Virus record (IMG/VR): IMGVR_UViG_3300032782_000004
DNA length: 27,854 nucleotides
Reading direction: 5' to 3' (one strand)
DNA from: a virus
Lineage: Duplodnaviria > Heunggongvirae > Uroviricota > Caudoviricetes
The position numbers and the translations under genes were made by a program. Positions 1-27,238 of this stretch are shown piece by piece. The notes below the pieces were generated by a model. The model searched no databases. It was given only the letters and a program-made list of their open reading frames with translations, and had not been told where the DNA came from. Positions within the stretch are counted from its first letter, which is position 1. Every line of letters begins with the position of its first letter.

Positions 1-8
1 ACAGGATC

Positions 9-842
9 TTGTGCATCGGGATCTCGGACGCTAAGCACACCGTCGTTATTTGGCCGTGGCGCCCAAGAGTGCACGTGCCGCTTCTGCGGAAGCTCCACGC
101 GCGCGTAAAAACTATCGGGATGCACAACGGCTACTGCTTCGACCAAGTGGCGCTCATTCGCGACGGGATCCCGTTCGAAGAGATCGACGATAAGCTCGAA
201 GACACGCTGCTCGCGCATCACACGTTCGCGAGCCACATGCCTCAACGGCTCGCGCACGTCGCGAGCGTGTTCTGTGATGCCGGCCCGTGGAAGATCGTTT
301 TCAAGAAGGGCAAAGACGGCGCGTCGGAGAAGGGGCTTCCGCCTGAGAAGCTCGATCCGAAGGATCTGTGCAAGTACAACGCGATCGACGCGCGTGTTCA
401 AGCGATGGTCTGGCTCGAGATGCAAAACGATCTGCGCTCCGAGCTCTCGGTGTACGCGGTCGACAAGGACAACGCTCGTTTGTGTCGAGGGATGATCATC
501 GACGGCATCGCGGTCGATCTCGATCGGCGTGACGAGCTTCGAGCAGCGATCATCCTCAAGGAGGAGGACTTGCTGTTTAAGATGCGCAAGCTTCTCCGGC
601 GCTCGAACTTCCACCCGATGCAGCTCTCGGAGGTGCGCAAGGCGCTTTTCAAGACGCTCGGGGCGCCGATCGCTGCGGCGGATCCAACCGAGAGCGGGTT
701 GCCGAGCACGAGCCAGAAGACGCTCGAGCGGCTCAAGGAGCGCCCCACGCGTGCCGGGCAGTTCGCCGATTTGCTGCTTCAGTGGCGTGGAGCCGTGAAG
801 ATCAGAAGCACTTACATCGACTCGCAGGTACTCGATGTCTAA
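9..842 (+). CDS. polA: Family A DNA polymerase, N-terminal part (3'-5' exonuclease plus thumb region); frame is open to the left window edge
   Basis: ExoII-like MHNGYCFD, ExoIII-like KYNAID, and C-terminal LLQWRGAVKIRSTYID matching the PolA LLEYR..KL.STY segment. Stops at TAA 840-842. Confidence 0.8.
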   Translation: MCIGISDAKHTVVIWPWRPRVHVPLLRKLHARVKTIGMHNGYCFDQVALIRDGIPFEEIDDKLEDTLLAHHTFASHMPQRLAHVASVFCDAGPWKIVFKKGKDGASEKGLPPEKLDPKDLCKYNAIDARVQAMVWLEMQNDLRSELSVYAVDKDNARLCRGMIIDGIAVDLDRRDELRAAIILKEEDLLFKMRKLLRRSNFHPMQLSEVRKALFKTLGAPIAAADPTESGLPSTSQKTLERLKERPTRAGQFADLLLQWRGAVKIRSTYIDSQVLDV

Positions 843-1797
843 AGCTAGCGGTAAGCAGAAGCTGTCGGCGATTGAAATCTCGGCACCGGGAGAAATAGGC
901 CCCGTCGCTCGAACGCATTTCAATTGGAGGAGTTACGGCGCCGCGTCCGGCCGGTATTCGTGCCGCTTGCAATCGTGTCCGCGGGCCGAATACCTCAAGG
1001 ACAAGAGCATCGTTCTCGAGACGCGCGTTCGAGAACTGTACGTAGCGCCACCCGGATCGAAACTGGTTTACTTCGACTTGAGTCAAGCCGAGCTCCGCTT
1101 TTCTGCTTACCTGTCAGGCGACAAGTCTTTCATCGCAGCGTGCGAGTCCGGCGATGTTCATACCGCCACGGCGATGAAACTGTTTCCCGCCGACGCAGAG
1201 CTCATCGGACGTGATCCAAAGGGCGCCGGAAAACCGTTCCGGGACGTCGAGAAGAATTCGATCTTCGGGTTCATCTACTACGCCGAGCCGGCGACGATTT
1301 TCACGTTCGTGCGATCGAAGGGGCTTCCGGTGGAGTTTCGCGATGTGCTCGCGATGCACGACATGGTCCGAGAGACGTTCGCCGATTACTTTCGCTACGT
1401 TGAGCAAAACAAGCGTTGGACAGACAAGCACGGCTATCTGCGGTGCGCGCTTTCTGGGCGCATTTCGTGGCTCGGCTGGCACGCGGGTTACCCAGATGTC
1501 AGCAACCGCCCGATTCAGGGCGGTATCGCGTCTCTCATGAATGTTCGACTGCCGAGGATCTCACGCGCGTTACCAAAGGGCGCCCGGGTCGTAGCACAGA
1601 TCCACGACGCGGCGATCATGGAGGTCCCGGAACGCCACGTCGAACGAGTAAAAGCGCTCGTTCAGGCGACGTGGAACGAACCGGTCGTTGTTCCGGCAAA
1701 CGGGTTCGGATCGTCGACGCGGATCGAAGACGGAGCGAGGCAGTTCGTGATGCCGATCGATTTGAAGATCGGAGATCGGTGGAGCTCATTCGGATGA
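835..1797 (+). CDS. polA: Family A DNA polymerase, C-terminal polymerase domain
   Basis: RTHFNWRSYGAASGRYS (cf. TGRLSS), motif A DLSQAELR, motif B RDVEKNSIFGFIY (Phe at the 762-equivalent position), motif C IHD. Confidence 0.9.
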   Translation: MSKASGKQKLSAIEISAPGEIGPVARTHFNWRSYGAASGRYSCRLQSCPRAEYLKDKSIVLETRVRELYVAPPGSKLVYFDLSQAELRFSAYLSGDKSFIAACESGDVHTATAMKLFPADAELIGRDPKGAGKPFRDVEKNSIFGFIYYAEPATIFTFVRSKGLPVEFRDVLAMHDMVRETFADYFRYVEQNKRWTDKHGYLRCALSGRISWLGWHAGYPDVSNRPIQGGIASLMNVRLPRISRALPKGARVVAQIHDAAIMEVPERHVERVKALVQATWNEPVVVPANGFGSSTRIEDGARQFVMPIDLKIGDRWSSFG

Positions 1798-3576: not shown

Positions 3577-3605
3577 TTGCGCATCTTGCCGCCTCTTGCT
3601 ATAGA
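3577..3605 (+). promoter_or_regulatory. Putative sigma70-type promoter for the Ro60 gene
   Basis: TTGCGC (3577-3582), 17 nt, then TATAGA (3600-3605) with a TG extension at 3597-3598. It sits in the only gap before ATG 3615. Confidence 0.35.
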
Positions 3606-3614
3606 TTGGTCAGG

Positions 3615-5294
3615 ATGACGCGATACGCAGCTCACGTGAACCGACGCGCGACCTCTCAGCAAGAGAGCGCTCGTGCCGATCAGGTACAAAACAACGCGGG
3701 CGGTTTCGTGTTCGCGCTCGACAAGTGGAAACGCCTGGATCGCTTTCTTATTCTTGGGGCCGATGGTGGCACTTACTACGTCAGCGAGCGCGAGTTGACG
3801 ATCGACAACGCGAACGTCGTATTGGAATGCCTCGCCGAAGACGGTCTCCGGACGGTTCGGCGCATCGTAGAAATCAGCGACACCGGCCGCGCGCCGCGGA
3901 ACGACCCGGCAATTTTCGCGCTTGCGATCGCTGCGGGTACCGGCATCGGCGTCGGCGGCTACGGCGGCACCGTCGCCGCGGCAACGCGGAAAGCAGCGCT
4001 CGAGGCGTTGCCGAAGGTTTGCCGTATCGGAACCCACTTGTTCCATTTCGCCAATGACGTCGAAGGCTTTCGGGGATGGGGCCCGGCGTTGCGCAAAGCA
4101 ATCGCAGCCTGGTACGCACAACGCGAGCCGCGCGCGCTCGCTTACGATCTCGTGAAGTACCAGTCACGCGATGGCTGGGGGCACAAGGATTTGATCAAGC
4201 TGTCGCATCCTCAAGCGCCGACGGCGGCGCACAAAGCGGCGTTGGCATGGTCTGCACGCGGCGGTACCGAAAAGATGGGCGTTTCAACGCGGAAGAAGGG
4301 CGGCGGCGAACGCGGTACGATCGCCAACCGCGATGCTCTTCCGGCGATTATCGAAGCTTTCGTCGAAATTCACGCCGATGGCGTCGACGTTCGGCGAGCT
4401 TGCGAGCTGATTCGCGCTCATCGGCTGCCACACGAATGCGTCCCGAACGAGCTCAAAAATCGACCGGAGATCTGGGACGCGCTCTCCGAGCACATGGGGC
4501 TCACGGCGCTCATGCGCAATCTCAACAAGATGACGGCGGTCGGGCTCCTGAAACCGCTCTCCGACAAAACGCATGCGATTTGCTCGAAGCTCATTGATCC
4601 CAACGCCCTGTTCAAGGCGCGCGTACACCCGCTCGCGGTGCTTATCGCCCTCAAGACCTATTCGGCGGGTCAAGGCGCTCTTGGCAAGTTGACGTGGATT
4701 CCGACCTCGGAGATCGTCGACGCGCTCGATTCGGCGTTTTACCTCGCATTCGAGGCGATCGAACCGACAAACAAGCGGCACCTGCTTGGCGTCGATTGCT
4801 CTGGCAGTATGACGGCTCCGATCGCGCGCTTGAACCTTACCGCTCGAGAAGGCGCGGCAGCGATGGCGATGGCGACGGTGCGGGCCGAAAAGCGTACACA
4901 TGTGATGGGTTTTTGCGGCCAGTTCGTGTCGCTTCCGATCACGGCAAAGCAGCGCCTCGACGATGTCGTTCGAACCGTAGGGCAGGCGAGCTTCGGCCAA
5001 ACCGATTGTGCGTTGCCGATGATTTACGCGGCGGAGCACAAGCTCGAAGTCGATTGCTTCTCCGTTTACACCGACAACGAGACGTGGTTCGGCAGCGTCC
5101 ATCCGTTTCAAGCTCTTCGGGCGTACCGCGAGCGAATGGGTATCCCGGCAAAGCTCGTGGTCGTTGGAATGGCATCGACTGGTTTCACGATCGCCGATCC
5201 GACCGATGAGGGCATGCTCGACGTAGTAGGATTCGATTCCGCTGCGCCCGCCGTCATCGCCGATTTCGCCGCCGAGCGGGAGGTATGCGGATAA
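3615..5294 (+). CDS. rsr: Ro60/Rsr TROVE-vWA RNA-binding protein
   Basis: NNAGGFVF, RFLILGADGGTYY, KYQSRDGWGHKDLIKLSHP, ALMRNLNKMT, MIDAS DCSGS, YTDNETW, DVVGFDS: characteristic Ro60 blocks along the whole length. Confidence 0.96.
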   Translation: MTRYAAHVNRRATSQQESARADQVQNNAGGFVFALDKWKRLDRFLILGADGGTYYVSERELTIDNANVVLECLAEDGLRTVRRIVEISDTGRAPRNDPAIFALAIAAGTGIGVGGYGGTVAAATRKAALEALPKVCRIGTHLFHFANDVEGFRGWGPALRKAIAAWYAQREPRALAYDLVKYQSRDGWGHKDLIKLSHPQAPTAAHKAALAWSARGGTEKMGVSTRKKGGGERGTIANRDALPAIIEAFVEIHADGVDVRRACELIRAHRLPHECVPNELKNRPEIWDALSEHMGLTALMRNLNKMTAVGLLKPLSDKTHAICSKLIDPNALFKARVHPLAVLIALKTYSAGQGALGKLTWIPTSEIVDALDSAFYLAFEAIEPTNKRHLLGVDCSGSMTAPIARLNLTAREGAAAMAMATVRAEKRTHVMGFCGQFVSLPITAKQRLDDVVRTVGQASFGQTDCALPMIYAAEHKLEVDCFSVYTDNETWFGSVHPFQALRAYRERMGIPAKLVVVGMASTGFTIADPTDEGMLDVVGFDSAAPAVIADFAAEREVCG

Positions 5295-5304
5295 ACAGAT
5301 TCGT

Positions 5305-5372
5305 GCTCGGAGCCGTTGAGGTTGGGTTACCCTTTGGCGGATATCTCCCAACTTCGTTTCTCCGCCCCGAGC
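5305..5372 (+). ncRNA. Y-RNA-like stem-loop, copy 1
   Basis: Outer stem GCTCGG/CCGAGC, inner 9-bp stem GAGGTTGGG/CCCAACTTC, pyrimidine-rich internal loop; begins 10 nt after the Ro60 stop. Confidence 0.7.
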
Positions 5373-5382
5373 CTGTATTGAG

Positions 5383-5459
5383 AAGGTCCGAGCCGTTGCG
5401 GTTGGGTTATCATGCAACGATTCCCCCAGTCGCGCTTCTCCGCCCGGGCCTTATTTTTT
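5383..5459 (+). ncRNA. Y-RNA-like stem-loop, copy 2, followed by a U tract
   Basis: Outer stem AAGGTCCG/CGGGCCTT, inner 9-bp stem GCGGTTGGG/CCCAGTCGC, contains GGTCCGA, ends TTATTTTTT. Lies 80 nt after copy 1. Confidence 0.72.
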
Positions 5460-5469
5460 CTGAGACCAG

Positions 5470-5643
5470 ATGGTGAAGAAAGAGATTTCACGTGGCGACG
5501 TTCTTCGGCTGGCGGCCGAAGCACAGCTCGATCCGAGGACGGTCAAGCGCGCCATCGAACGCGGCATCGAAAGCCTGCAAGCGGCCGTGGACAAAGATCG
5601 CCTTCGCGCCGCCGCGGCCAAGTTGAGGATCAAAGTCGAATGA
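5470..5643 (+). CDS. Small HTH-like DNA-binding protein (57 aa)
   Basis: MVKKEISRGDVLRLAAEAQLDPRTVKRAIERG...; LAAEAQLDPRTVKR fits a helix-turn-helix pattern. Not in the ORF track. Confidence 0.7.
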   Translation: MVKKEISRGDVLRLAAEAQLDPRTVKRAIERGIESLQAAVDKDRLRAAAAKLRIKVE

Positions 5644-5649
5644 ACTTCT

Positions 5650-5860
5650 CTGGAGGTAACTCCAGTTTGGCGTACCCGCGGAGCGCGGGTTCGAAACACT
5701 CTTCGAAAGAAGAGGACAACGTCCGAAGGAAGCGGACGGCACGGGCGATCAAGCGCAAGCTCGAACGTCACGGCCCCGCATTGCCTCGGAAACCGGCCTT
5801 GCGCCGGAGCCCTCGTCTCAAGACGAGGCAATCGATCGTCATCATCGTTTCGCTTTCTAC
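5650..5860 (+). ncRNA. Putative structured ncRNA ending in an anti-repeat (tracr-like)
   Basis: Perfect hairpins at 5650-5665 (GTAA loop), 5674-5690, 5699-5714 (GAAA loop), 5720-5738, 5793-5807 and 5811-5828. No credible CDS. Confidence 0.5.
5826..5860 (-). repeat. Inverted degenerate copy (anti-repeat) of the array repeat
   Basis: Minus strand GTAGAAAGCGAAACGATGATGACGATCGATTGCCT matches the 35-nt repeat at 26/35 positions with no gaps. Confidence 0.8.
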
Positions 5861-5999
5861 GAGAGCGCGAGCGCCGAGGTGCCGCGAGACATGGTTTCGA
5901 GCAATTTCGCTCGGATACGGCGACGTGGAGCCGATGATCTACGAACCGCTCGCAGACCGGCTTGCAAGTACGCGATTCGTCTACGTCGTTGGCAGGCCG

Positions 6000-6257
6000 G
6001 TCGAAAGCGATTCGACGACGACAATCGGTTGTCAGTGGAGCCGGATCAGGATCGCCGGACGGACGGTGGCGCGTCGAAAGCGATTCGACGACGACAATCG
6101 GTTGTCAAACGGACCTAGCGCAGAGTAGCACAGACTACGTGACGTGTCGAAAGCGGTTCGACGATGACAATCGGTCAGTCAGAAGCGTCTCGCGATCTCG
6201 CGAGAGTTTCGAACACATCGTGTCGAAAGCGATTCGGTGATAGCGATTGATTTGTCA
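6000..6257. CRISPR. CRISPR-like mini-array: 4 repeats, 3 unique spacers, no cas gene in window
   Basis: GTCGAAAGCGATTCGACGACGACAATCGGTTGTCA is identical at 6000-6034 and 6073-6107, variant at 6146-6181 and degenerate at 6222-6257. Spacers are 38, 38 and 40 nt. The repeats are certain; CRISPR identity is inferred. Confidence 0.65.
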
Positions 6258-6382
6258 GCGCGTCCTGCGCAGGCGATAATCTCTGTTACGTACCCCAAGT
6301 AACGCCAAAACTCGCGCGGCGGAGCATCAAAGCGCATCCGCTGCGCGGCCTCGAGCATTCGCGCACGCTGAACGTCGGTCAT
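6179..6382 (-). CDS. Small hypothetical protein (67 aa) running antisense into the array
   Basis: ATGA-coupled to the upstream - strand gene; its C-terminal third overlaps repeat 4 and spacer 3. Confidence 0.4.
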   Translation of the reverse strand: MTDVQRARMLEAAQRMRFDAPPREFWRYLGYVTEIIACAGRADKSIAITESLSTRCVRNSREIARRF

Positions 6383-7527
6383 GCGAACGTGATCGGCTGC
6401 GGCGTGACCGGCACCGCCAGCGCCAGTTGAAGCGTCTTGGTGAACAGCCCGCTCAAGAACGTTGGTGCCGGTATAGTCGACGGATCGAGCGGTGGATTCG
6501 GCGGGGGCGCCGCGACCTCGAGCGCGACGAATTCCCCGAGTGGTCCGCTAAGCTCGTCGTTGCTCGGCGTTCCGAACGTCTCGCTCAAGTTTTGTTGCGC
6601 AACCGCAAAGTAACTCTGCGGCAAATACACGAGCGGGCGGTCGATGAGCAATTGCGCTTCGTCGGTGAGCGCGACGAGAAAATCGAGTGCGGTCGCGTTC
6701 GCTTGTACCATCGGCAACGGCTCCGACAGCTCGGCGAGCGTGATTTGCCCTGCGCTGTTTCCGAAAACGCCGGTGCCGGTGAGAATGAAATTGTCGATGA
6801 CGGCGATGTCGATGCTGCCCACCGCGAGCGGCACCGCAGCCGGACGTTTGCCGGTGAGTCCGACCGTTGCCGTGAACGGGCCCGCGCCCGTCGAATCGTG
6901 ATAGATGAGCTCGACGGAGCGCGCGCCGTTTCCGGCCGGAATAGCCGGCGTCGTCGCGACCCCGTTCGTATCGAACGGCGAGGTCGAATAGACCGCCACG
7001 TTCGTCACCGGCGTCGCTACCGTCTTGAATGCGGTCGTGTTGGATGTGATCCCGGAGTACGCGGCGGTGAGTACGATCTGCGTCGCGCCGAGCACCGTTG
7101 CCACTTCGTAGAAAACGCCAGGCTGCGAAAGGAATTGGATCAGATCACCCGATTGCAAATTCGGAATTTGTGTGGCCGTCGTCGCAACGCCGAAGAGGCC
7201 GTTGGCGACGAAAAACGATCCAGGCAGCGTCACTGCTTTGCGCAGTTCGTAGGGAAGTGTCGGCGGCGTCGATGTATCGGGTTGGCAGGGAAACGGTGGA
7301 GGCGCTCCGGCGCCGGCCATGTTCAAGGTGAGCATCCGCGTAACGGTTGTTCCGCTCGGTGTCGTCACGTCGCTGTCGACGTTGAGCCCAAAAAATTGGC
7401 CGAGAACCGGATCAGTGCCCACATTGTCGTAGAGCGGCACTGCGGAAAGCGCCGCAGCAGCTTGCGTTGGCCCATAAGGGCTATTCGTCACGTCGACGGT
7501 CCAGGCGAGCACGATTTGGCTGGGCAT
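6379..7527 (-). CDS. Probable virion structural protein (beta-rich, Thr/Pro-rich)
   Basis: Long ORF, likely start MPSQIV at 7527; composition resembles phage structural proteins. No family recognised. Confidence 0.7.
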   Translation of the reverse strand: MPSQIVLAWTVDVTNSPYGPTQAAAALSAVPLYDNVGTDPVLGQFFGLNVDSDVTTPSGTTVTRMLTLNMAGAGAPPPFPCQPDTSTPPTLPYELRKAVTLPGSFFVANGLFGVATTATQIPNLQSGDLIQFLSQPGVFYEVATVLGATQIVLTAAYSGITSNTTAFKTVATPVTNVAVYSTSPFDTNGVATTPAIPAGNGARSVELIYHDSTGAGPFTATVGLTGKRPAAVPLAVGSIDIAVIDNFILTGTGVFGNSAGQITLAELSEPLPMVQANATALDFLVALTDEAQLLIDRPLVYLPQSYFAVAQQNLSETFGTPSNDELSGPLGEFVALEVAAPPPNPPLDPSTIPAPTFLSGLFTKTLQLALAVPVTPQPITFA

Positions 7528-7680
7528 GGGCTCAGAATACACCCGAAGGCGTCACGCCCTGCACCGTGCCCTCTACGTGGCTCGCAGCGCGCTTTGATCG
7601 ACGCCTCGAACGACCTGGGGTCCGGTGTCCGATCGAGCGCTCTGGAGCCGCACAAGCGCGGTGCTGGACACCGCCGCGCC

Positions 7681-15978: not shown

Positions 15979-16650
15979 TCAATGCATCGGATGCGATCGT
16001 CTAAAAACGTTGCGGTTCCATGCGACATATCCAGCGATCGCCGTCATGCCGAGAACGGCAATCGTCGCGAGTACGGGCGCCCCTTCCGGCTTTTTGGGCG
16101 ACGAGACGAGCTCGAACGCGTAGCTGCTATCAGGCACTTCGACGACGCCATTCGCGTGGCTCAACACAGCGCGCATGTGCGCGCGCACGTCGCCGACGGT
16201 GATGGCGCCTTTGCCGTTCGAATCGAAGGTTTGATTGGCGGCGTACTCGGGCGAGCCGGCAGCGAACATGACAGTGCTATCGGGCGCGCCGATGAGGTTC
16301 GCTTGGCCGAATGACGCGAGCACGTAGTCTTCGATCTGTTGCGGGATCTTACGACCGAGTGTCGACGCAAAAAAGCGTTCGACGAGCGGGAGCTGCTGCT
16401 CGGCGGTCATGGCGCGGATCTGGGCCGTCGTCGTGCCCAGACGGTTCGCCGTCGATTCGATGAACTGGATCAAGCCACTCGCCGAACCGTTTGGATTCTT
16501 CGCCGCCGGATTGAAACCGCTCTCTTCACTGATGACCAGCGCGATGCCGTTCGGATCCCACCCGTGCCGTGCAGACAGATCGACAAGCCCGCGCAAAAAC
16601 GTCGGAGTGACGGTCTGGATCCCTGGCAGCGCTAGCAAGTACGTGGACAT
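15979..16650 (-). CDS. Lytic transglycosylase (SLT-like) with C-terminal membrane anchor
   Basis: [13 protein letters not shown]...ASGLIQF; C-terminal hydrophobic helix [19 protein letters not shown] followed by basic residues. Confidence 0.85.
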
Positions 16651-21813: not shown

Positions 21814-24800
21814 TTACAGAGGCACCAATCGACTGTCGACGATGCTCGGATCGAAGAAAGCGAGGTGTGCAGAGGCGTCGTTTACACCGAAGCTAGCAAC
21901 TAGCTTTTTGCCATCTCGCGCAAGACCCGCGCAAAATTCAATACCTACACGGGAAAAGTAGAACAAGTCGCTGACAGCAGTAATCCGGAAGTCTCCAGTG
22001 AGCGCGACGAAGCGATGCAAATATACGCGCTCCGGCCGCCAAGCGACTTCGTGCACGAGGCATAACCACCCGTCTCCGTGTCGGATAAGTTGAGAGCCAC
22101 CCCGGAAATCGACGAGCCGAGCGGGTGCCGTGTGTCGTGCGATCTCGACGGTCCGCTCGCCGACATCGGATGAACCACCGCCGGGCGAATAGCATCGAAT
22201 GGCGATGGTCGGATCGCACCAGTACAAGAAGGATCCCGGACGGCCGGCGATCGGCATCCAGTTCTTCTGCGTCTTGTGCCCCTCGTAGTCGCGGATCGGC
22301 ATGATCGCATCGACGTGTCTCTTCTCGTCGAGCCGGCCAATGATCATCTCGCAGCGGCCATCGACGTTGTCGGAGAGGTCGCGTACCGTCGCGGACACGA
22401 AGTACGAATCGGCGCTCGACCACAAGCGACAGTCCTCGAGCCCCTCGACGGGGAACTTGCTGCGCGGCGTGCCGGTCACGTCTTCGATCAGCGTTGATCG
22501 AATCGGCCTCCAGCTTTCGTCCATTTCGACGATGTAGTTGCGCGTTCGGATGATCCCGCTGCCGTCGATTGTCGGGTACTCACCGTCAACGACGACGTAG
22601 TTGACCGTCCGAACGAGCGCCAACCGCGCCTCCTTCTCGACGAAGATCGAGGGGTTCATCGGCGCCCAACCGTCGCCCGGTTTCCAGTCGATCTCTCGAA
22701 TCTCGGCCTCGAAGAGCGTAGCCGCCGACTTCGCGTAGAACGTAAAGTTTCGGCGCGCTTCGTTTCGGATGAAATCGTCGCGATGGAGCGTGAGCTCGGT
22801 GCACGCGCGATATCCCGCTTCGCGCCGCTCCGGGATTTTACTGTGGTACCCGGTAATGGCGAGCTCGCGCTTGGCCCCGAAGTCGTAGACGTTCAATTCC
22901 ATGAAGAGCATCTCGTCTGCCGGCTTGGTTCGAATGAACGCCTCGGCGATCAAAGCGGCCGGGTCGTTCTTCCCTTTTTCGCGGTAGTACGTGGCGAGCA
23001 AATTGAGTGCTTCTGCGCGCCAAGGACGATAGTTATACGCTTCGAAGCACGCTTCGATGAAGGCCGGCTCGTCGCCGAGATCTTTCAAGCAGATCGCGAT
23101 CCCGTAGTACGAGTACCAGATCTCCTCGTCCCACCCGCCACGTTCGATGCGCTTCTTGTACCAGTAGATCGCGCGGTGCGGTCGATCGGACTCGCGATAC
23201 GAGTTCCCTAGATAGAACATGTACCGCTCGTTGTTCGGTTCTTCTTGCAAGCCATCGAGAAGTAATCGGATGTCCCGCTCCGTCTTGTCCGACTTGCTCC
23301 CGCCATCGTTGCGGTCGTCGATGGTCAAACTGGTGATCGGTGCGTATTCGACGCCTTCGACAGAGAGGTGTTCATGGGTGACTCCGACGTAGCAAGCGGG
23401 AACGTCGCGACGCAGGAGGCGCGTGTTCGGGTTCTTGAGCGTTCCGGCGTATTGGATGATCTTATATGCCGGAGCGACGAGCGCGCTTTTGTCGAGCGTC
23501 CCTTGAAGCACCATGTCGGCGTCGATGAGCAACGCGTAATCCCAATCGGGGACAGAGCGCGCGACGCGGAGGCCCTCGTTTCGGCCGTGAGCAAAGTTTT
23601 TGAACTCGATCCGTTCGAGCTTCCCCGGTAGCGGATACTGTTCGAAAAACTTCGTGATCAGCTCGGCCGTGTTGTCGTCCGATCGGCTGTCGATCGAAAT
23701 GGCCCAAGCGTCGATGAACGGGAGCGCGGACGTCAAACAGCGTTCGATAATCTTGCTCTCGTTTCGAACATTCATCACGAGACAGACACGCGGGATCTCG
23801 GGGAGACGTTTCGGCCGCTCGATCGCTTTTTCGAAGTCGATGATGCTGTCATCGTGGTCGGCTTTGTACCAGTCGAAGCGGAAGCCGGCGCGTTCCATTC
23901 GAGCCCAGTTGTTGACCTCCCAGGTCAACGAAACGGGATCGGCATGGAGCGTAGCGTTCAATGCGACGAGATCGCGTATTCGGTTCCTATCGACGAGCAA
24001 AAATCCTCCGCAGAACCGCCAATGCACGACATCGTCTGTCAATGGCGGCGCTTCCGCCGCTGCGCCCCAACATCCTGGAGCGAGCACGCATCCCGCCGGA
24101 GGGTGTAGCGCTCGCAAGCGTTTCCGAAAAGACTCCTCGTCGCGGACGATCTTCATGATACCGAAGTCGATCCAAGCGAAATGCGTCGACACGTTATCGA
24201 GCGAGCGGGCAAGGTCAAGCAGCTCTATCTTCGAATTTTGGAGCAATAGGAAATCGCGCGTGTCCTTCTCGAGTGTGCGATGCGCCGGAAGCGTCAGTTC
24301 GCGTCCTTCGGCCCATTTGAATGGCCATAGATCTCCGAGCCGCATCGGGACGATCTGGACATTCTCGCGCCACCAAGCTCGATCCATGAGCCGTTCATCT
24401 AGAAACACCAAGATCGGAGCGCCGCATTTAGCAAGCCGTTCGAATTGTCGGAACTGCTCGTCCTCGTCGATGCGCCGGTCTTCCAATCGAAAAAATCCTG
24501 TGACGAGCGTTACTTTCGTCGGTCGCGCTACGATCCAATCATGAACGGCCTTTGGATTGCCTTGAAGAATCGTTTTCGTCATTTCCGGCGCTACAGCAGC
24601 GGTCAGCCCGACTTTTCTAGCTCGATCGAGCACATCGTCGCGTTTGAACCATGAGACGCCCGGGTACTGCCATTCTCGAAAATCGGCGCCATGTCGAGCG
24701 CTCCCCGGTGAACCGAATTCATTGCCTTCAGCGAGCCGTATCGAAGCGGCGAGCACGCCTTCTGGTGCGAGCTGTTCTCTAGCCGCGACAAAAAACTCGT

Positions 24801-25197
24801 CGAGCTGACTGTCCGAGGCGTGGCTCAAGATCGAGTGCGAAATGATGAAATCGAACTTCCAACCCAATCCGGTGCGAAAGTCCGCGCGGGGAGAAAATTG
24901 CGGTCGTTTCGCCACGACAGTCGGCGCGGCCTCGGATGCCCTCAACGTCGACTGGATGAGCCACGAGTTCGGATCGATGCCGAAGTAGTTGCCGGCATCG
25001 AGGTATTGCATGATCGGAAAGCCGGCGACCAGAGCGCCGCATCCTATTTCGAGCACGCGATGATGCGGCTTGCAGCCGAGATCTTTTAAGATCTCGAGCT
25101 GCGCTAGACCTTCTTCAGGGAGCGTGCAAACGTAGCTGACGGCATCGGCGTTCTCGGGGCTAAACGGGAGCGGCTTCACGGTCATTATCGACCCCAT
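21814..25197 (-). CDS. Multidomain glycosylation protein: SAM methyltransferase + HtrL/WlaTC-like GT + GT2 + TPR + beta-propeller glycosidase-like domain
   Basis: VLEIGCG; VTLVTGFF...HFAWIDFG; CLVMNVRNE...IDSRSDDNT...LLIDAD; TPR-like YMFYLGNSY/AIYWYKKR; MNPSI, GLEDCRL, QKNWMP, EFCAGL. Confidence 0.85.
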   Translation of the reverse strand: MGSIMTVKPLPFSPENADAVSYVCTLPEEGLAQLEILKDLGCKPHHRVLEIGCGALVAGFPIMQYLDAGNYFGIDPNSWLIQSTLRASEAAPTVVAKRPQFSPRADFRTGLGWKFDFIISHSILSHASDSQLDEFFVAAREQLAPEGVLAASIRLAEGNEFGSPGSARHGADFREWQYPGVSWFKRDDVLDRARKVGLTAAVAPEMTKTILQGNPKAVHDWIVARPTKVTLVTGFFRLEDRRIDEDEQFRQFERLAKCGAPILVFLDERLMDRAWWRENVQIVPMRLGDLWPFKWAEGRELTLPAHRTLEKDTRDFLLLQNSKIELLDLARSLDNVSTHFAWIDFGIMKIVRDEESFRKRLRALHPPAGCVLAPGCWGAAAEAPPLTDDVVHWRFCGGFLLVDRNRIRDLVALNATLHADPVSLTWEVNNWARMERAGFRFDWYKADHDDSIIDFEKAIERPKRLPEIPRVCLVMNVRNESKIIERCLTSALPFIDAWAISIDSRSDDNTAELITKFFEQYPLPGKLERIEFKNFAHGRNEGLRVARSVPDWDYALLIDADMVLQGTLDKSALVAPAYKIIQYAGTLKNPNTRLLRRDVPACYVGVTHEHLSVEGVEYAPITSLTIDDRNDGGSKSDKTERDIRLLLDGLQEEPNNERYMFYLGNSYRESDRPHRAIYWYKKRIERGGWDEEIWYSYYGIAICLKDLGDEPAFIEACFEAYNYRPWRAEALNLLATYYREKGKNDPAALIAEAFIRTKPADEMLFMELNVYDFGAKRELAITGYHSKIPERREAGYRACTELTLHRDDFIRNEARRNFTFYAKSAATLFEAEIREIDWKPGDGWAPMNPSIFVEKEARLALVRTVNYVVVDGEYPTIDGSGIIRTRNYIVEMDESWRPIRSTLIEDVTGTPRSKFPVEGLEDCRLWSSADSYFVSATVRDLSDNVDGRCEMIIGRLDEKRHVDAIMPIRDYEGHKTQKNWMPIAGRPGSFLYWCDPTIAIRCYSPGGGSSDVGERTVEIARHTAPARLVDFRGGSQLIRHGDGWLCLVHEVAWRPERVYLHRFVALTGDFRITAVSDLFYFSRVGIEFCAGLARDGKKLVASFGVNDASAHLAFFDPSIVDSRLVPL

Positions 25198-25198
25198 G

Positions 25199-26434
25199 CT
25201 ACCCTAATTCTTTTTCGAGCGACATAGTCGATTTGCGTGTCAGGATCGTTAGCCCGTTGTTGTTGCTCAGTCGATTTTCTAGGCGCCAATCCGAATGCGC
25301 GTCTAGGAACTCTACGATCGCCGGCCATAAACCGAGCCCGCTCTCGGACTCGTCCCGACTGCCGTAAGTCGTTGTATCGTGCATGAGGATGTGCTTACGT
25401 ACTTTCGACTCATGTACAAATAACTCGCATCGGAGCTGAGCGTAGTTGTGTATCGTGTCGATGAACAATAGATCTGTTTTTTCGATGCTAGCCGCTAAGG
25501 CGCTTTCGACGCAGAATCGAAAATCGATTTTCGCCGCCGCGGCGATCTCGCTTAACTCCCGCATATCCAAATGGCGGATATCGTAACTCCGCATCGACTT
25601 CGGACGCCCGCGCAGTAACCCCCATGTAGATCTGCCCGCGCCGAATTCCGTGACGTGCGCGCACTTGCTCGCGTACATCGACAGAACCGAGATATGCTCG
25701 TTAATGTCGGACGGCTCGATCTCACACTGATGATACTGCCTTTCGATTTTGCCCAGTGCAGTGCATATCTTGTTGAGCCCCGAATCCCACCGAATGCGAT
25801 CGCTTTCTGTTATCGCGTCGAACTCGTGCAAACTAGATCCGCTGACGGCCCCCTTATGCCACACCCCCATGCCGTGCACAGTCCGCTGCGCGAATCCGGC
25901 CCATCTTAGTAGCCAGTAGATCCAATCGTCGCCGCAGTGGATAAGAAGCTCGGAAGGTATAGGGAATGCGATCGACACGGCCTCCCTGGACATCGCGAAG
26001 AAGGCCCCGTGTACATAGTCTGTAGCGGTCGAGTCCGCGGACGGCTCTAGTGGCGCGTAGATCTCGTTTTCGTTGAGTAGTCTGGCGATCCAATATTCTC
26101 TTTGTTCCGCGCTATCGCAGCGCATCAGTAACGACTTCGTCCAATTCGGCGATGCGATCAGATCGGCGTTCGCTAGAACTAGTACGTCGTGTTCTGAGGC
26201 CAGAAAGATTTCCGCCAACTGATTCCATGCCGGATTCACGTAGACGTTCACGTCGTTGCGCACCACAGAGATCGAAGCGCCCATCTCGCGTAAAACCGAT
26301 TTAACATCGGCTGTCGCGCCGTTTTCGATCGCAACCACATGCGTCTCCGGGCTTAAGAAAGATCGAATTGCGCTCAACAGCAATTCACGCGGTTCAGCGA
26401 AGCAAGGCACCCCCACCATAATTCTGGCAGTCAT
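25199..26434 (-). CDS. GT2-like glycosyltransferase fused to a class I SAM methyltransferase
   Basis: MTARIMVGVPCF...IENGA...NPAWN...NAD...GDDW, then SDINEH...EFGAGRST...DLLFIDTIHNY...MHDT. ATG 26434 has an ATGA overlap with an alternative-frame stop. Confidence 0.75.
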   Translation of the reverse strand: MTARIMVGVPCFAEPRELLLSAIRSFLSPETHVVAIENGATADVKSVLREMGASISVVRNDVNVYVNPAWNQLAEIFLASEHDVLVLANADLIASPNWTKSLLMRCDSAEQREYWIARLLNENEIYAPLEPSADSTATDYVHGAFFAMSREAVSIAFPIPSELLIHCGDDWIYWLLRWAGFAQRTVHGMGVWHKGAVSGSSLHEFDAITESDRIRWDSGLNKICTALGKIERQYHQCEIEPSDINEHISVLSMYASKCAHVTEFGAGRSTWGLLRGRPKSMRSYDIRHLDMRELSEIAAAAKIDFRFCVESALAASIEKTDLLFIDTIHNYAQLRCELFVHESKVRKHILMHDTTTYGSRDESESGLGLWPAIVEFLDAHSDWRLENRLSNNNGLTILTRKSTMSLEKELG

Positions 26435-27238
26435 TTTGCCGCCTCCATAGCTCTGTGTGCGGTGTTCAAGAACCTGTCCTCTGACATGTTTGTGGGGCAA
26501 GCCTCTGCACGCTTCAAGAGCAGCGCGTACACGTCGGGATCGAGCGCGCACTTCTCGGTCGCATGTACATCGAACACTCGCTTTCGGTCGGAGCGACCAG
26601 CCGTCTGGGATCCGCCCGTCAAACGGCTTAGAGTAGGTTTCCGAGTCAGGCATACCGCCCCACTTCTGCACGAAATAAAGCCGAGATTGTTCGATCGCGA
26701 CGGCCATCCAGTCGGGGCGCCCGAGAGCGTTGAAAGTCGTCCAACAGCCGGCATGTTGCACCGGCTCGGAGCAATTCCAAGTGCCGCTCACACCGGCGCG
26801 CACGAGACGGACAGCGTAGTCCGAGTCTTCGTAGTACCCGGGCCAAAAGTTTTCGTCGTAGAACCCGACTGTTTGCGTGCACTCCGGCGTCTGCCCGAAA
26901 AGGCACCAGCCGTTTCCAACAATTCGATGAGTCTCGAGATCACGTGTCATTTCCTCGAAGGTGCGCTCGCCGAGGACGACGTCGTCGTTCGCGATGACAA
27001 TCGGTTCGCCGAGCTCGAGCATCTTGTTCCAAGACGCTGCAACGCCGATATTCTCATCGGGGATGACGGCGTGGATCTTCGAGCGCCACGGACGATTTGG
27101 AAGCGATGACAGATCGCCGCCGTTGAACACGATCACGTAGCCGCTCGGCGCCAACGATCCGCGTTCGGCCGATTCGATCAGACGGACGAGCCCCTCGAAA
27201 TTGACGAGAACCGGAACGCCGAGCTTCACCGGTCGCAA
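26431..27238 (-). CDS. GT2-family glycosyltransferase (as sequenced, reads through in frame into the next gene)
   Basis: NIGVAASWN, ANDDV, VGFYDENFWPGYYEDSDY. The ORF track gives one 679-aa ORF, 25199-27238. Confidence 0.75.

Follow-up and report, generated by a model that had tools for sequence, protein, structure and literature searches.

The 27,854-nucleotide (nt) stretch of DNA analyzed here, hereafter the window, is part of the genome of a temperate, tailed phage and corresponds to IMG/VR record IMGVR_UViG_3300032782_000004. We focused on a plus-strand block in which a gene for a Ro60 homologue, two Y-like RNAs and a gene for a protein of 57 amino acids (aa) are followed by a structured RNA region with an anti-repeat and by an array of clustered regularly interspaced short palindromic repeats (CRISPR). 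A first-pass annotation, made by a model from the sequence alone, had proposed these elements as a candidate new system, either a module built around Ro60 or a mini-array acting on a host Cas system. Our analysis divides the block into two units, the second of which, at positions 5644–6378, probably serves as a source of guide RNAs for a TnpB-like protein encoded elsewhere in the same phage.

This second unit is a cassette of 735 nt. It fills precisely the interval between the stop codons of a convergent gene pair, the 57-aa gene on the plus strand (5470–5643) and a 387-aa gene on the minus strand (6379–7542). More distant relatives were reached via homologues of the 57-aa protein. One of these (L054, 88% identity) contains the C-terminus of Ro60, both Y-like RNAs and the 57-aa gene, whose stop codon overlaps that of the convergent gene, with neither scaffold nor array. 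Two others (L051 and L052, 74% identity) contain a Ro60 remnant, both Y-like RNAs and the 57-aa gene, followed by 283 nt of unrelated sequence and again no scaffold or array. In BLASTN comparisons of the three sequences to the window, the homology ended at position 5643 and resumed at 6383/6384. Thus, the segment from 5644 to 6378 is an insertion of 735 nt exactly between two stop codons.

The first 356 nt of the cassette (5644–5999, plus strand) represent a putative guide scaffold similar to a trans-activating CRISPR RNA (tracrRNA). The region of dense hairpins described in the first-pass annotation was confirmed by folding of the segment 5644–6034, which yielded −182 kcal/mol and z-scores of −6.0 on the plus strand and −4.9 on the minus strand. 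The GUAA and GAAA tetraloops (of the GNRA type) fall on the plus strand, and the six single-nucleotide polymorphisms (SNPs) that distinguish the scaffolds of different strains are all structure-neutral in the minimum free energy (MFE) model. The anti-repeat at 5826–5860 (plus strand) shows 26 matches over 35 positions to the reverse complement of the repeat, as first reported, or 28 pairs with G-U pairs included, as compared to a maximum of 23 matches among 200 shuffled repeats. The energy of the repeat:anti-repeat duplex was −38.6 kcal/mol, versus −27.1 ± 2.8 kcal/mol for the shuffles. A second contact of the pseudoknot type may be provided by the motif GACAAC at 5715–5720 (plus strand), which is complementary to the 3' end of the repeat (GUUGUC) and pairs with it in the MFE fold; being a 6-mer only, this is weak evidence.

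The array itself extends from 6000 to 6258 on the plus strand, with the leader to the left and repeats that decay rightwards. The four repeats recognized initially (6000–6035, 6073–6108, 6146–6182 and 6222–6258) were all recovered, the last two in degenerate form, and are separated by three spacers (6036–6072, 6109–6145 and 6183–6221). The anti-repeat adjoins the array on the same strand, as in tracrRNA-dependent type V loci, and the order on the plus strand is type V-like: a structured 5' scaffold, the anti-repeat and then the repeat-spacer units, in which the spacer is located 3' of the repeat. The tracrRNA-type CRISPR layout suggested by the first-pass annotation was thereby upheld. The orientation of the cassette was inferred from the leader-trailer polarity. 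A type II layout on the minus strand was also considered and is disfavored by this polarity, by the GNRA loops, by the spacer lengths and by the lack of a Cas9-sized gene.

Comparison of strains revealed that the content of the array is variable. The units consist of 36-nt repeats and 36–40-nt spacers, and 4, 10 and at least 12 repeats were counted in three strains. At the same locus, with the same repeat and in near-identical flanks, we observed 3 spacers in the window, 9 in contigs L001/L004 and at least 11 in contig L002, and in the sister strains as many as 12 repeats are perfectly conserved, with spacers that differ. Since near-identical contigs differ in this manner, the array turns over, and we conclude that it is a genuine, changing CRISPR array. 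The trailer-side spacer is common to the window and L004. One spacer is common to L004 (10531–11192) and L002 (553–1399) with neighbours that differ on both sides, and G/A variants of repeat position 29 are interleaved along both of these arrays. These two observations are not accounted for by polar addition alone and point to recombination between repeats as a contributor to the array change, in addition to polar acquisition. The assembly contigs break inside repeat 1 in two sequencing runs, and the repeat-only unitig has approximately twice the depth of its flanks. In L002 (355–552, minus strand), the trailer-side spacer that the other strains have in common is missing, and the degenerate terminal repeat is set apart from the last regular one by about 180 nt of unrelated sequence.

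The repeat appears to be private to this phage. A metagenome scan with the repeat returned two contigs, both of this phage, and outside the phage the repeat was absent from 241 million metagenome records (including those from the same wetland samples), GTDB genomes and IMG/VR; likewise, the exact repeat pattern had no match in IMG/VR and GTDB. The matches to a looser triple 12-mer pattern were limited to a coding repeat with no relation to the array (L023) and a satellite of 67 nt in a metagenome-assembled genome of Obscuribacterales (L024). No second copy of the scaffold was found among sequencing-run contigs aligned at 80% likeness, and no look-alike of the repeat, the scaffold or the scaffold translation was found elsewhere in the sequence index of the survey. 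Within the window, positions 16349–16383 in a gene for an SLT-domain protein match the reverse complement of the repeat at 25 of 35 positions, which is above all 200 shuffles (maximum 23); this repeat-like site is probably an effect of chance or composition.

The remainder of the cassette (6259–6378, plus strand) is a trailer with a GC-rich hairpin that ends at the stop codon of the convergent 387-aa gene, the right edge of the insertion. A single sigma-70-like promoter match was found between 5200 and 6500 (6252–6280; TTGTCA, 17 nt, GATAAT); it overlaps the degenerate repeat at the end of the array and is directed into the 3' end of the convergent gene. The 387-aa protein has a high content of T, P, A and V, little K and R, and no Pfam or PHROG match, and it was ruled out as a hidden effector on these grounds. 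It is 56% identical to a homologue in a related phage (G006), where the gene adjoins the integrase gene, and its sequence suggests that it is probably a structural protein.

The Ro60 module and its relatives

The gene to the left of the cassette (3606–5294, plus strand; gene callers place the start at 3615) encodes a Ro60/Rsr homologue, in agreement with the first-pass annotation. The open reading frame (ORF) matched the Pfam families TROVE (1.4e-38) and vWA_Ro60 (8.5e-68), and at the nucleotide level the gene matches genes for the "Ro-like RNA binding protein" of actinophages. Two stem-loops follow directly on the same strand. Y-like RNA 1 (approximately 5307–5375) folds into an outer stem, a conserved asymmetric internal loop and an inner stem, with compensatory changes in L054 and L051. 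Y-like RNA 2 (stem-loop at approximately 5384–5452 within an element spanning 5384–5462) was recognized by folding and conservation; it contains the motif GGUCCGA and is followed by a U tract, which probably ends the Ro60-Y transcription unit. The covariation claimed initially was supported by RNAalifold on six sequences, comprising the window elements and those of two relatives, which gave 18 consensus pairs, 4 of them changed on both sides. The internal loop was invariant across the six aligned sequences. No Rfam model of Y RNAs matched these elements, even at E≤10.

Bacterial and phage Ro60 (Rsr) proteins are reportedly encoded next to Y RNAs (Chen et al. 2014). The present locus resembles such systems in the combination of a TROVE and vWA protein with conserved stem-loop RNAs directly after it, one of which carries GGUCCGA. 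It differs from them in that the RNAs are short (about 70 nt), arranged in tandem and contain no recognizable tRNA-like domain.

The 57-aa ORF at 5470–5643 proved to be a genuine and conserved gene: 26 homologues were found at 63–88% identity, and it occurs in many phage contexts that do not contain the array. Its existence as a gene thus agrees with the first-pass annotation. The sole support for the label of a helix-turn-helix (HTH) protein is a match to HTH_28 with E=0.049, below the Pfam cut-off, so that the product is possibly an HTH protein.

Together with the relatives described above, these results indicate that Ro60, the two Y-like RNAs and the 57-aa gene constitute an older, independent module that adjoins the insertion site by chance. 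No array was found within 6 kb of ten distant phage Ro60 loci (40–49% identity), nor beside the closer homologues. The nearest complete relative in IMG/VR, G006 (111 kb, with a polymerase that is 72% identical), contains no Ro60, TnpB-like gene or array, but keeps the 387-aa gene and the integrase gene. The stretch of the genome around Ro60 and the array is a cargo region.

A TnpB-like protein encoded by the same phage

The statement in the first-pass annotation that no cas gene is present holds for the window, but not for the genome. The gene tables of a 91.4-kb contig of the phage list a 625-aa protein with the domains PF12323 and PF07282, encoded on the opposite strand approximately 27 kb from the array. 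Two observations of the kind that the first-pass annotation had named as refuting its proposal were thereby made: the array is missing beside close Ro60 homologues, and an effector is encoded just outside the window. The protein was also retrieved by an exhaustive phmmer search with 44 N-terminal residues of a chimeric ORF in one of the relatives, at 78% identity. By cluster look-up, protein P0040 was placed on an 89,921-nt contig that also holds the array, and protein P0048 on a 91,854-nt record.

The domain matches of P0048 were HTH_OrfB_IS605, OrfB_IS605 and a Cas12f1-like TNB domain. Among PDB structures it matched ISDra2 TnpB (6.5e-17) and RdCas12n (9J09; 6.6e-5), whereas TranC and Cas12m were not significant; ISDra2 TnpB rather than Cas12n is therefore the better match. 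In an alignment of four family members, the RuvC-I position is occupied by Glu in three, the RuvC-II position by Arg in all four, and the RuvC-III Asp is kept. The effector thus reads E-R-D in place of the intact RuvC triad D-E-D. The replacement of the RuvC-II glutamate by arginine, along with that of the RuvC-I aspartate by glutamate, suggests that the effector probably binds or silences DNA without cutting it.

The family members differ at their C-termini. P0041 and P0044 end right after the RuvC-III motif, whereas in P0048 and P0043 this motif is followed by a poorly conserved tail, about 120 residues long. Because relatives lack it, the tail is not a protein domain. When the 121-residue tail of P0048 was used as a tblastn query against 468 kb of DNA, the best match was to the plus strand of the window at 5707–6006, that is, to the scaffold, with 42 bits; the next-best match in the 468 kb reached 32 bits and the best of 100 shuffled tails 31.2 bits. 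A second, collinear match was obtained in another frame at 5649–5795, including an identical heptapeptide (PRSAGSK) that in the window sequence spells a hairpin. The two matches are offset by 2 nt (one frame shift), as would be expected if noncoding homologues had diverged by a small indel. The coding span of the P0048 tail is 351 nt, identical to the length of the segment 5649–5999, and the best match of the P0043 tail in the window likewise fell in the scaffold. We consider this to be moderate evidence, short of proof, that the 3' end of the effector gene and the scaffold are homologous; it is graded no higher because the match disappears under the default filters of BLAST.

The chimeric ORF mentioned above encodes 196 aa in L051 (2633–3223). 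Its first 44 residues, which share 78% identity with the effector described here, correspond to an N-terminus of the TnpB type and continue in frame into the C-terminal vWA domain of Ro60. The ORF is a fossil of a deletion by which an effector gene became joined to Ro60 in a related phage, and it shows that the effector and Ro60 modules adjoined each other in a second lineage as well.

A different TnpB-like gene was observed in a further relative (L050, 12380–14051), 2.4 kb downstream of a homologue of the 57-aa gene. It encodes 455 aa, has His at the RuvC-I position, and copies of a 14-nt motif, CCTGCACTCGCTCC, are present on both flanks at a spacing of 28–70 nt. A search with the 455-aa protein identified eight homologues, none of which is the 625-aa effector.

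Proposed function of the cassette

With a probability of roughly 0.6, we interpret the segment 5644–6378 as a self-contained, effector-less guide-RNA cassette, which is a diverged paralogue of the guide module in the 3' part of the effector gene and acts in trans. The cassette would be transcribed on the plus strand into a long structured RNA. The anti-repeat at 5826–5860, perhaps together with GACAAC at 5715, would pair with each repeat and thereby restore a scaffold like that of an omegaRNA, carrying the spacer at the 3' end. The guides would then be loaded in trans onto the E-R-D TnpB-like protein of the phage, and the loaded effector would probably bind or silence DNA rather than cut it. 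The proposed pairing of GACAAC with the repeat end would resemble the pseudoknot contact in Cas12 tracrRNAs (bioRxiv 10.1101/2025.01.20.633832). No alternative partner for the cassette was found, the repeat being absent from GTDB, IMG/VR and all other metagenome contigs.

Several results weigh against this interpretation. The homology between tail and scaffold was seen solely in translated reading frames, within a tail of low complexity, and is lost under the default low-complexity and composition filters. The scaffold is less than 80% identical to its effector-linked counterpart, as judged from the contig alignment at 80%, and the repeat of the effector-linked array does not fit the 29-nt pattern of the window repeat. 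Searches for protospacers were negative in some 60 kb of the phage genome, in INPHARED and PLSDB and in five related viral records, and the exact cores of four spacers had no protospacer match in IMG/VR. With regard to the changing spacers, no members of Cas1, Cas2 or Cas9-like families were found in about 75 kb of phage gene tables.

The closest system for comparison is the effector-linked guide module of the phage itself, which has a scaffold of about 350 nt that appears to be homologous to the window scaffold via the gene tail. The window cassette differs from it in having no effector gene, in its location 27 kb away on the other strand, in its repeat (at least the 5' half) and in its sequence, which is less than 80% identical. 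Similarities are also seen to miniature, TnpB-derived type V systems with a tracrRNA, namely Cas12n (V-N/V-U4; RdCas12n, PDB 9J09), TranC and the phage Cas12p "hacker": a small TnpB-like protein, a long structured tracrRNA, an anti-repeat that pairs with 36–37-nt repeats, a spacer 3' of the repeat and no adaptation genes. Cas12p is phage-encoded (bioRxiv 10.1101/2025.01.20.633832), as are the elements described here. The present effector differs in being closer in sequence to ISDra2 TnpB than to RdCas12n and in having the RuvC residues E-R-D, and the published loci keep the guide module adjoining the effector.

Nuclease-dead repressors of the TldR type are TnpB-like proteins that use a single fixed omegaRNA guide and are not known to use a changing CRISPR array. 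The effector described here is similar to TldR and to the binding-only type V effectors Cas12m and Cas12c in being a TnpB-family protein with disrupted RuvC residues on a mobile element that would be expected to bind its target rather than cut it, but differs from TldR by the changing CRISPR array.

Other explanations of the locus can be weighed against a trans-acting guide cassette. The cassette could be an orphan relic that was copied or moved from a mini-CRISPR locus and is now drifting, unused by any effector. The lack of an adjoining effector, the divergence of the scaffold from the effector-linked copy by more than 20% and the degenerate state of the last two repeats in the window would all fit this explanation. 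It is nevertheless unlikely, given that sister strains contain the long arrays of perfect repeats with different spacers, that the very strong fold is preserved by each of the six strain SNPs, and that the anti-repeat still pairs along the whole repeat. Hijacking of a host tracrRNA-dependent Cas protein (type II or another type V), as entertained in the first-pass annotation, would mean that the phage provides scaffold and array and the host provides the protein and the adaptation functions. Such help from the host could explain why spacers change when no cas1 or cas2 was seen in the phage gene tables, and virus-borne mini-CRISPR arrays with no adjoining cas genes, to which the array is similar, have reportedly been described (Medvedeva et al. 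2019; Al-Shayeb et al. 2020). Those arrays, however, are said to copy host repeats, whereas here no host array with the repeat was present in the collections searched and the cassette has its own tracr-like scaffold. The scaffold is moreover related to the gene tail of the phage effector itself, and spacers of 36–40 nt are ill-fitting for type II, which together make a host partner quite unlikely.

A functional link to Ro60, in which the transcript of the scaffold and the array would be a substrate that Ro60 and its Y RNAs bind, process or subject to quality control, was a tempting reading of the block, as all elements adjoin on one strand and the L051 chimera places the effector and Ro60 modules side by side in another lineage. 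Since the proximity is seen both here and as a fossil in L051, it might not be accidental, and a Ro60-Y ribonucleoprotein could then chaperone, trim or quality-control the guide scaffold, unusually large at about 350 nt and rich in structure, of an effector that is TnpB-like and nuclease-dead. We regard this as very doubtful in both its general and its more specific form. Ro60 (or a remnant), the Y-like RNAs and the 57-aa gene are conserved in relatives that have no cassette, the ten other phage Ro60 loci have no array, G006 has neither module, and a U-tract terminator separates the two units. No paper describing such a system was found, which accords with the remark of the first-pass annotation that none was known. 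A "Ro60-CRISPR" system is removed from consideration as unsupported. The repeats could finally be non-CRISPR elements such as protein-binding iterons or operator sites, and the two short inverted repeats in each repeat and the period of 73 bp, or about seven helical turns, are features that such sites might have. This explanation is hardly credible, because the number of units and the intervening sequences vary freely among near-identical phages with the repeat remaining exact, and because iterons do not account for the polar decay of the repeats, the full-length anti-repeat or the apparently homologous effector-linked scaffold.

If the cassette does act in trans, an orphan phage array can be a complete guide module with its own diverged tracr-like scaffold, which serves a distant and probably nuclease-dead effector derived from TnpB. 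This would represent a natural case of one miniature effector drawing on two guide cassettes whose repeat:anti-repeat pairs differ, and would bear on the split of omegaRNA into tracrRNA and array and on multiplexed miniature effectors. The results also raise the question of how this phage's arrays acquire and reshuffle spacers with no visible adaptation genes.

The phage genome and its occurrence

Exact-protein matches located the same phage on wetland-metagenome contigs of 68, 89.9, 91.4 and 91.9 kb. In addition, a 151-nt contig identical to the window at 5863–6013, mostly within the scaffold, was found in a peat metagenome run from 2022 (X7) that belongs to a different study. The phage or its cassette is thus not restricted to a single wetland campaign.

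No tRNA was found in the window. No Rfam family reached its gathering threshold, and relaxing the search to E≤10 in the segment 5200–6450 brought up nothing meaningful. The gene content of the window includes a split family-A DNA polymerase, a Dam methylase, an integrase, collagen-like tail fibres, a GH16 domain and large glycosyltransferases.

Two adjoining genes encode the family-A DNA polymerase, the first specifying 573 aa with a UDG domain and the second 320 aa (window 3–1797; L007:12582–15258). Upstream of the split polymerase is a gene for 631 aa with a faint LAGLIDADG match, possibly an intein. At 21814–27238 on the minus strand of the window, two very large genes of 1127 aa and 676–679 aa are located beside the tail genes; they combine methyltransferase, glycosyltransferase and TPR domains and represent an unusual phage cargo.

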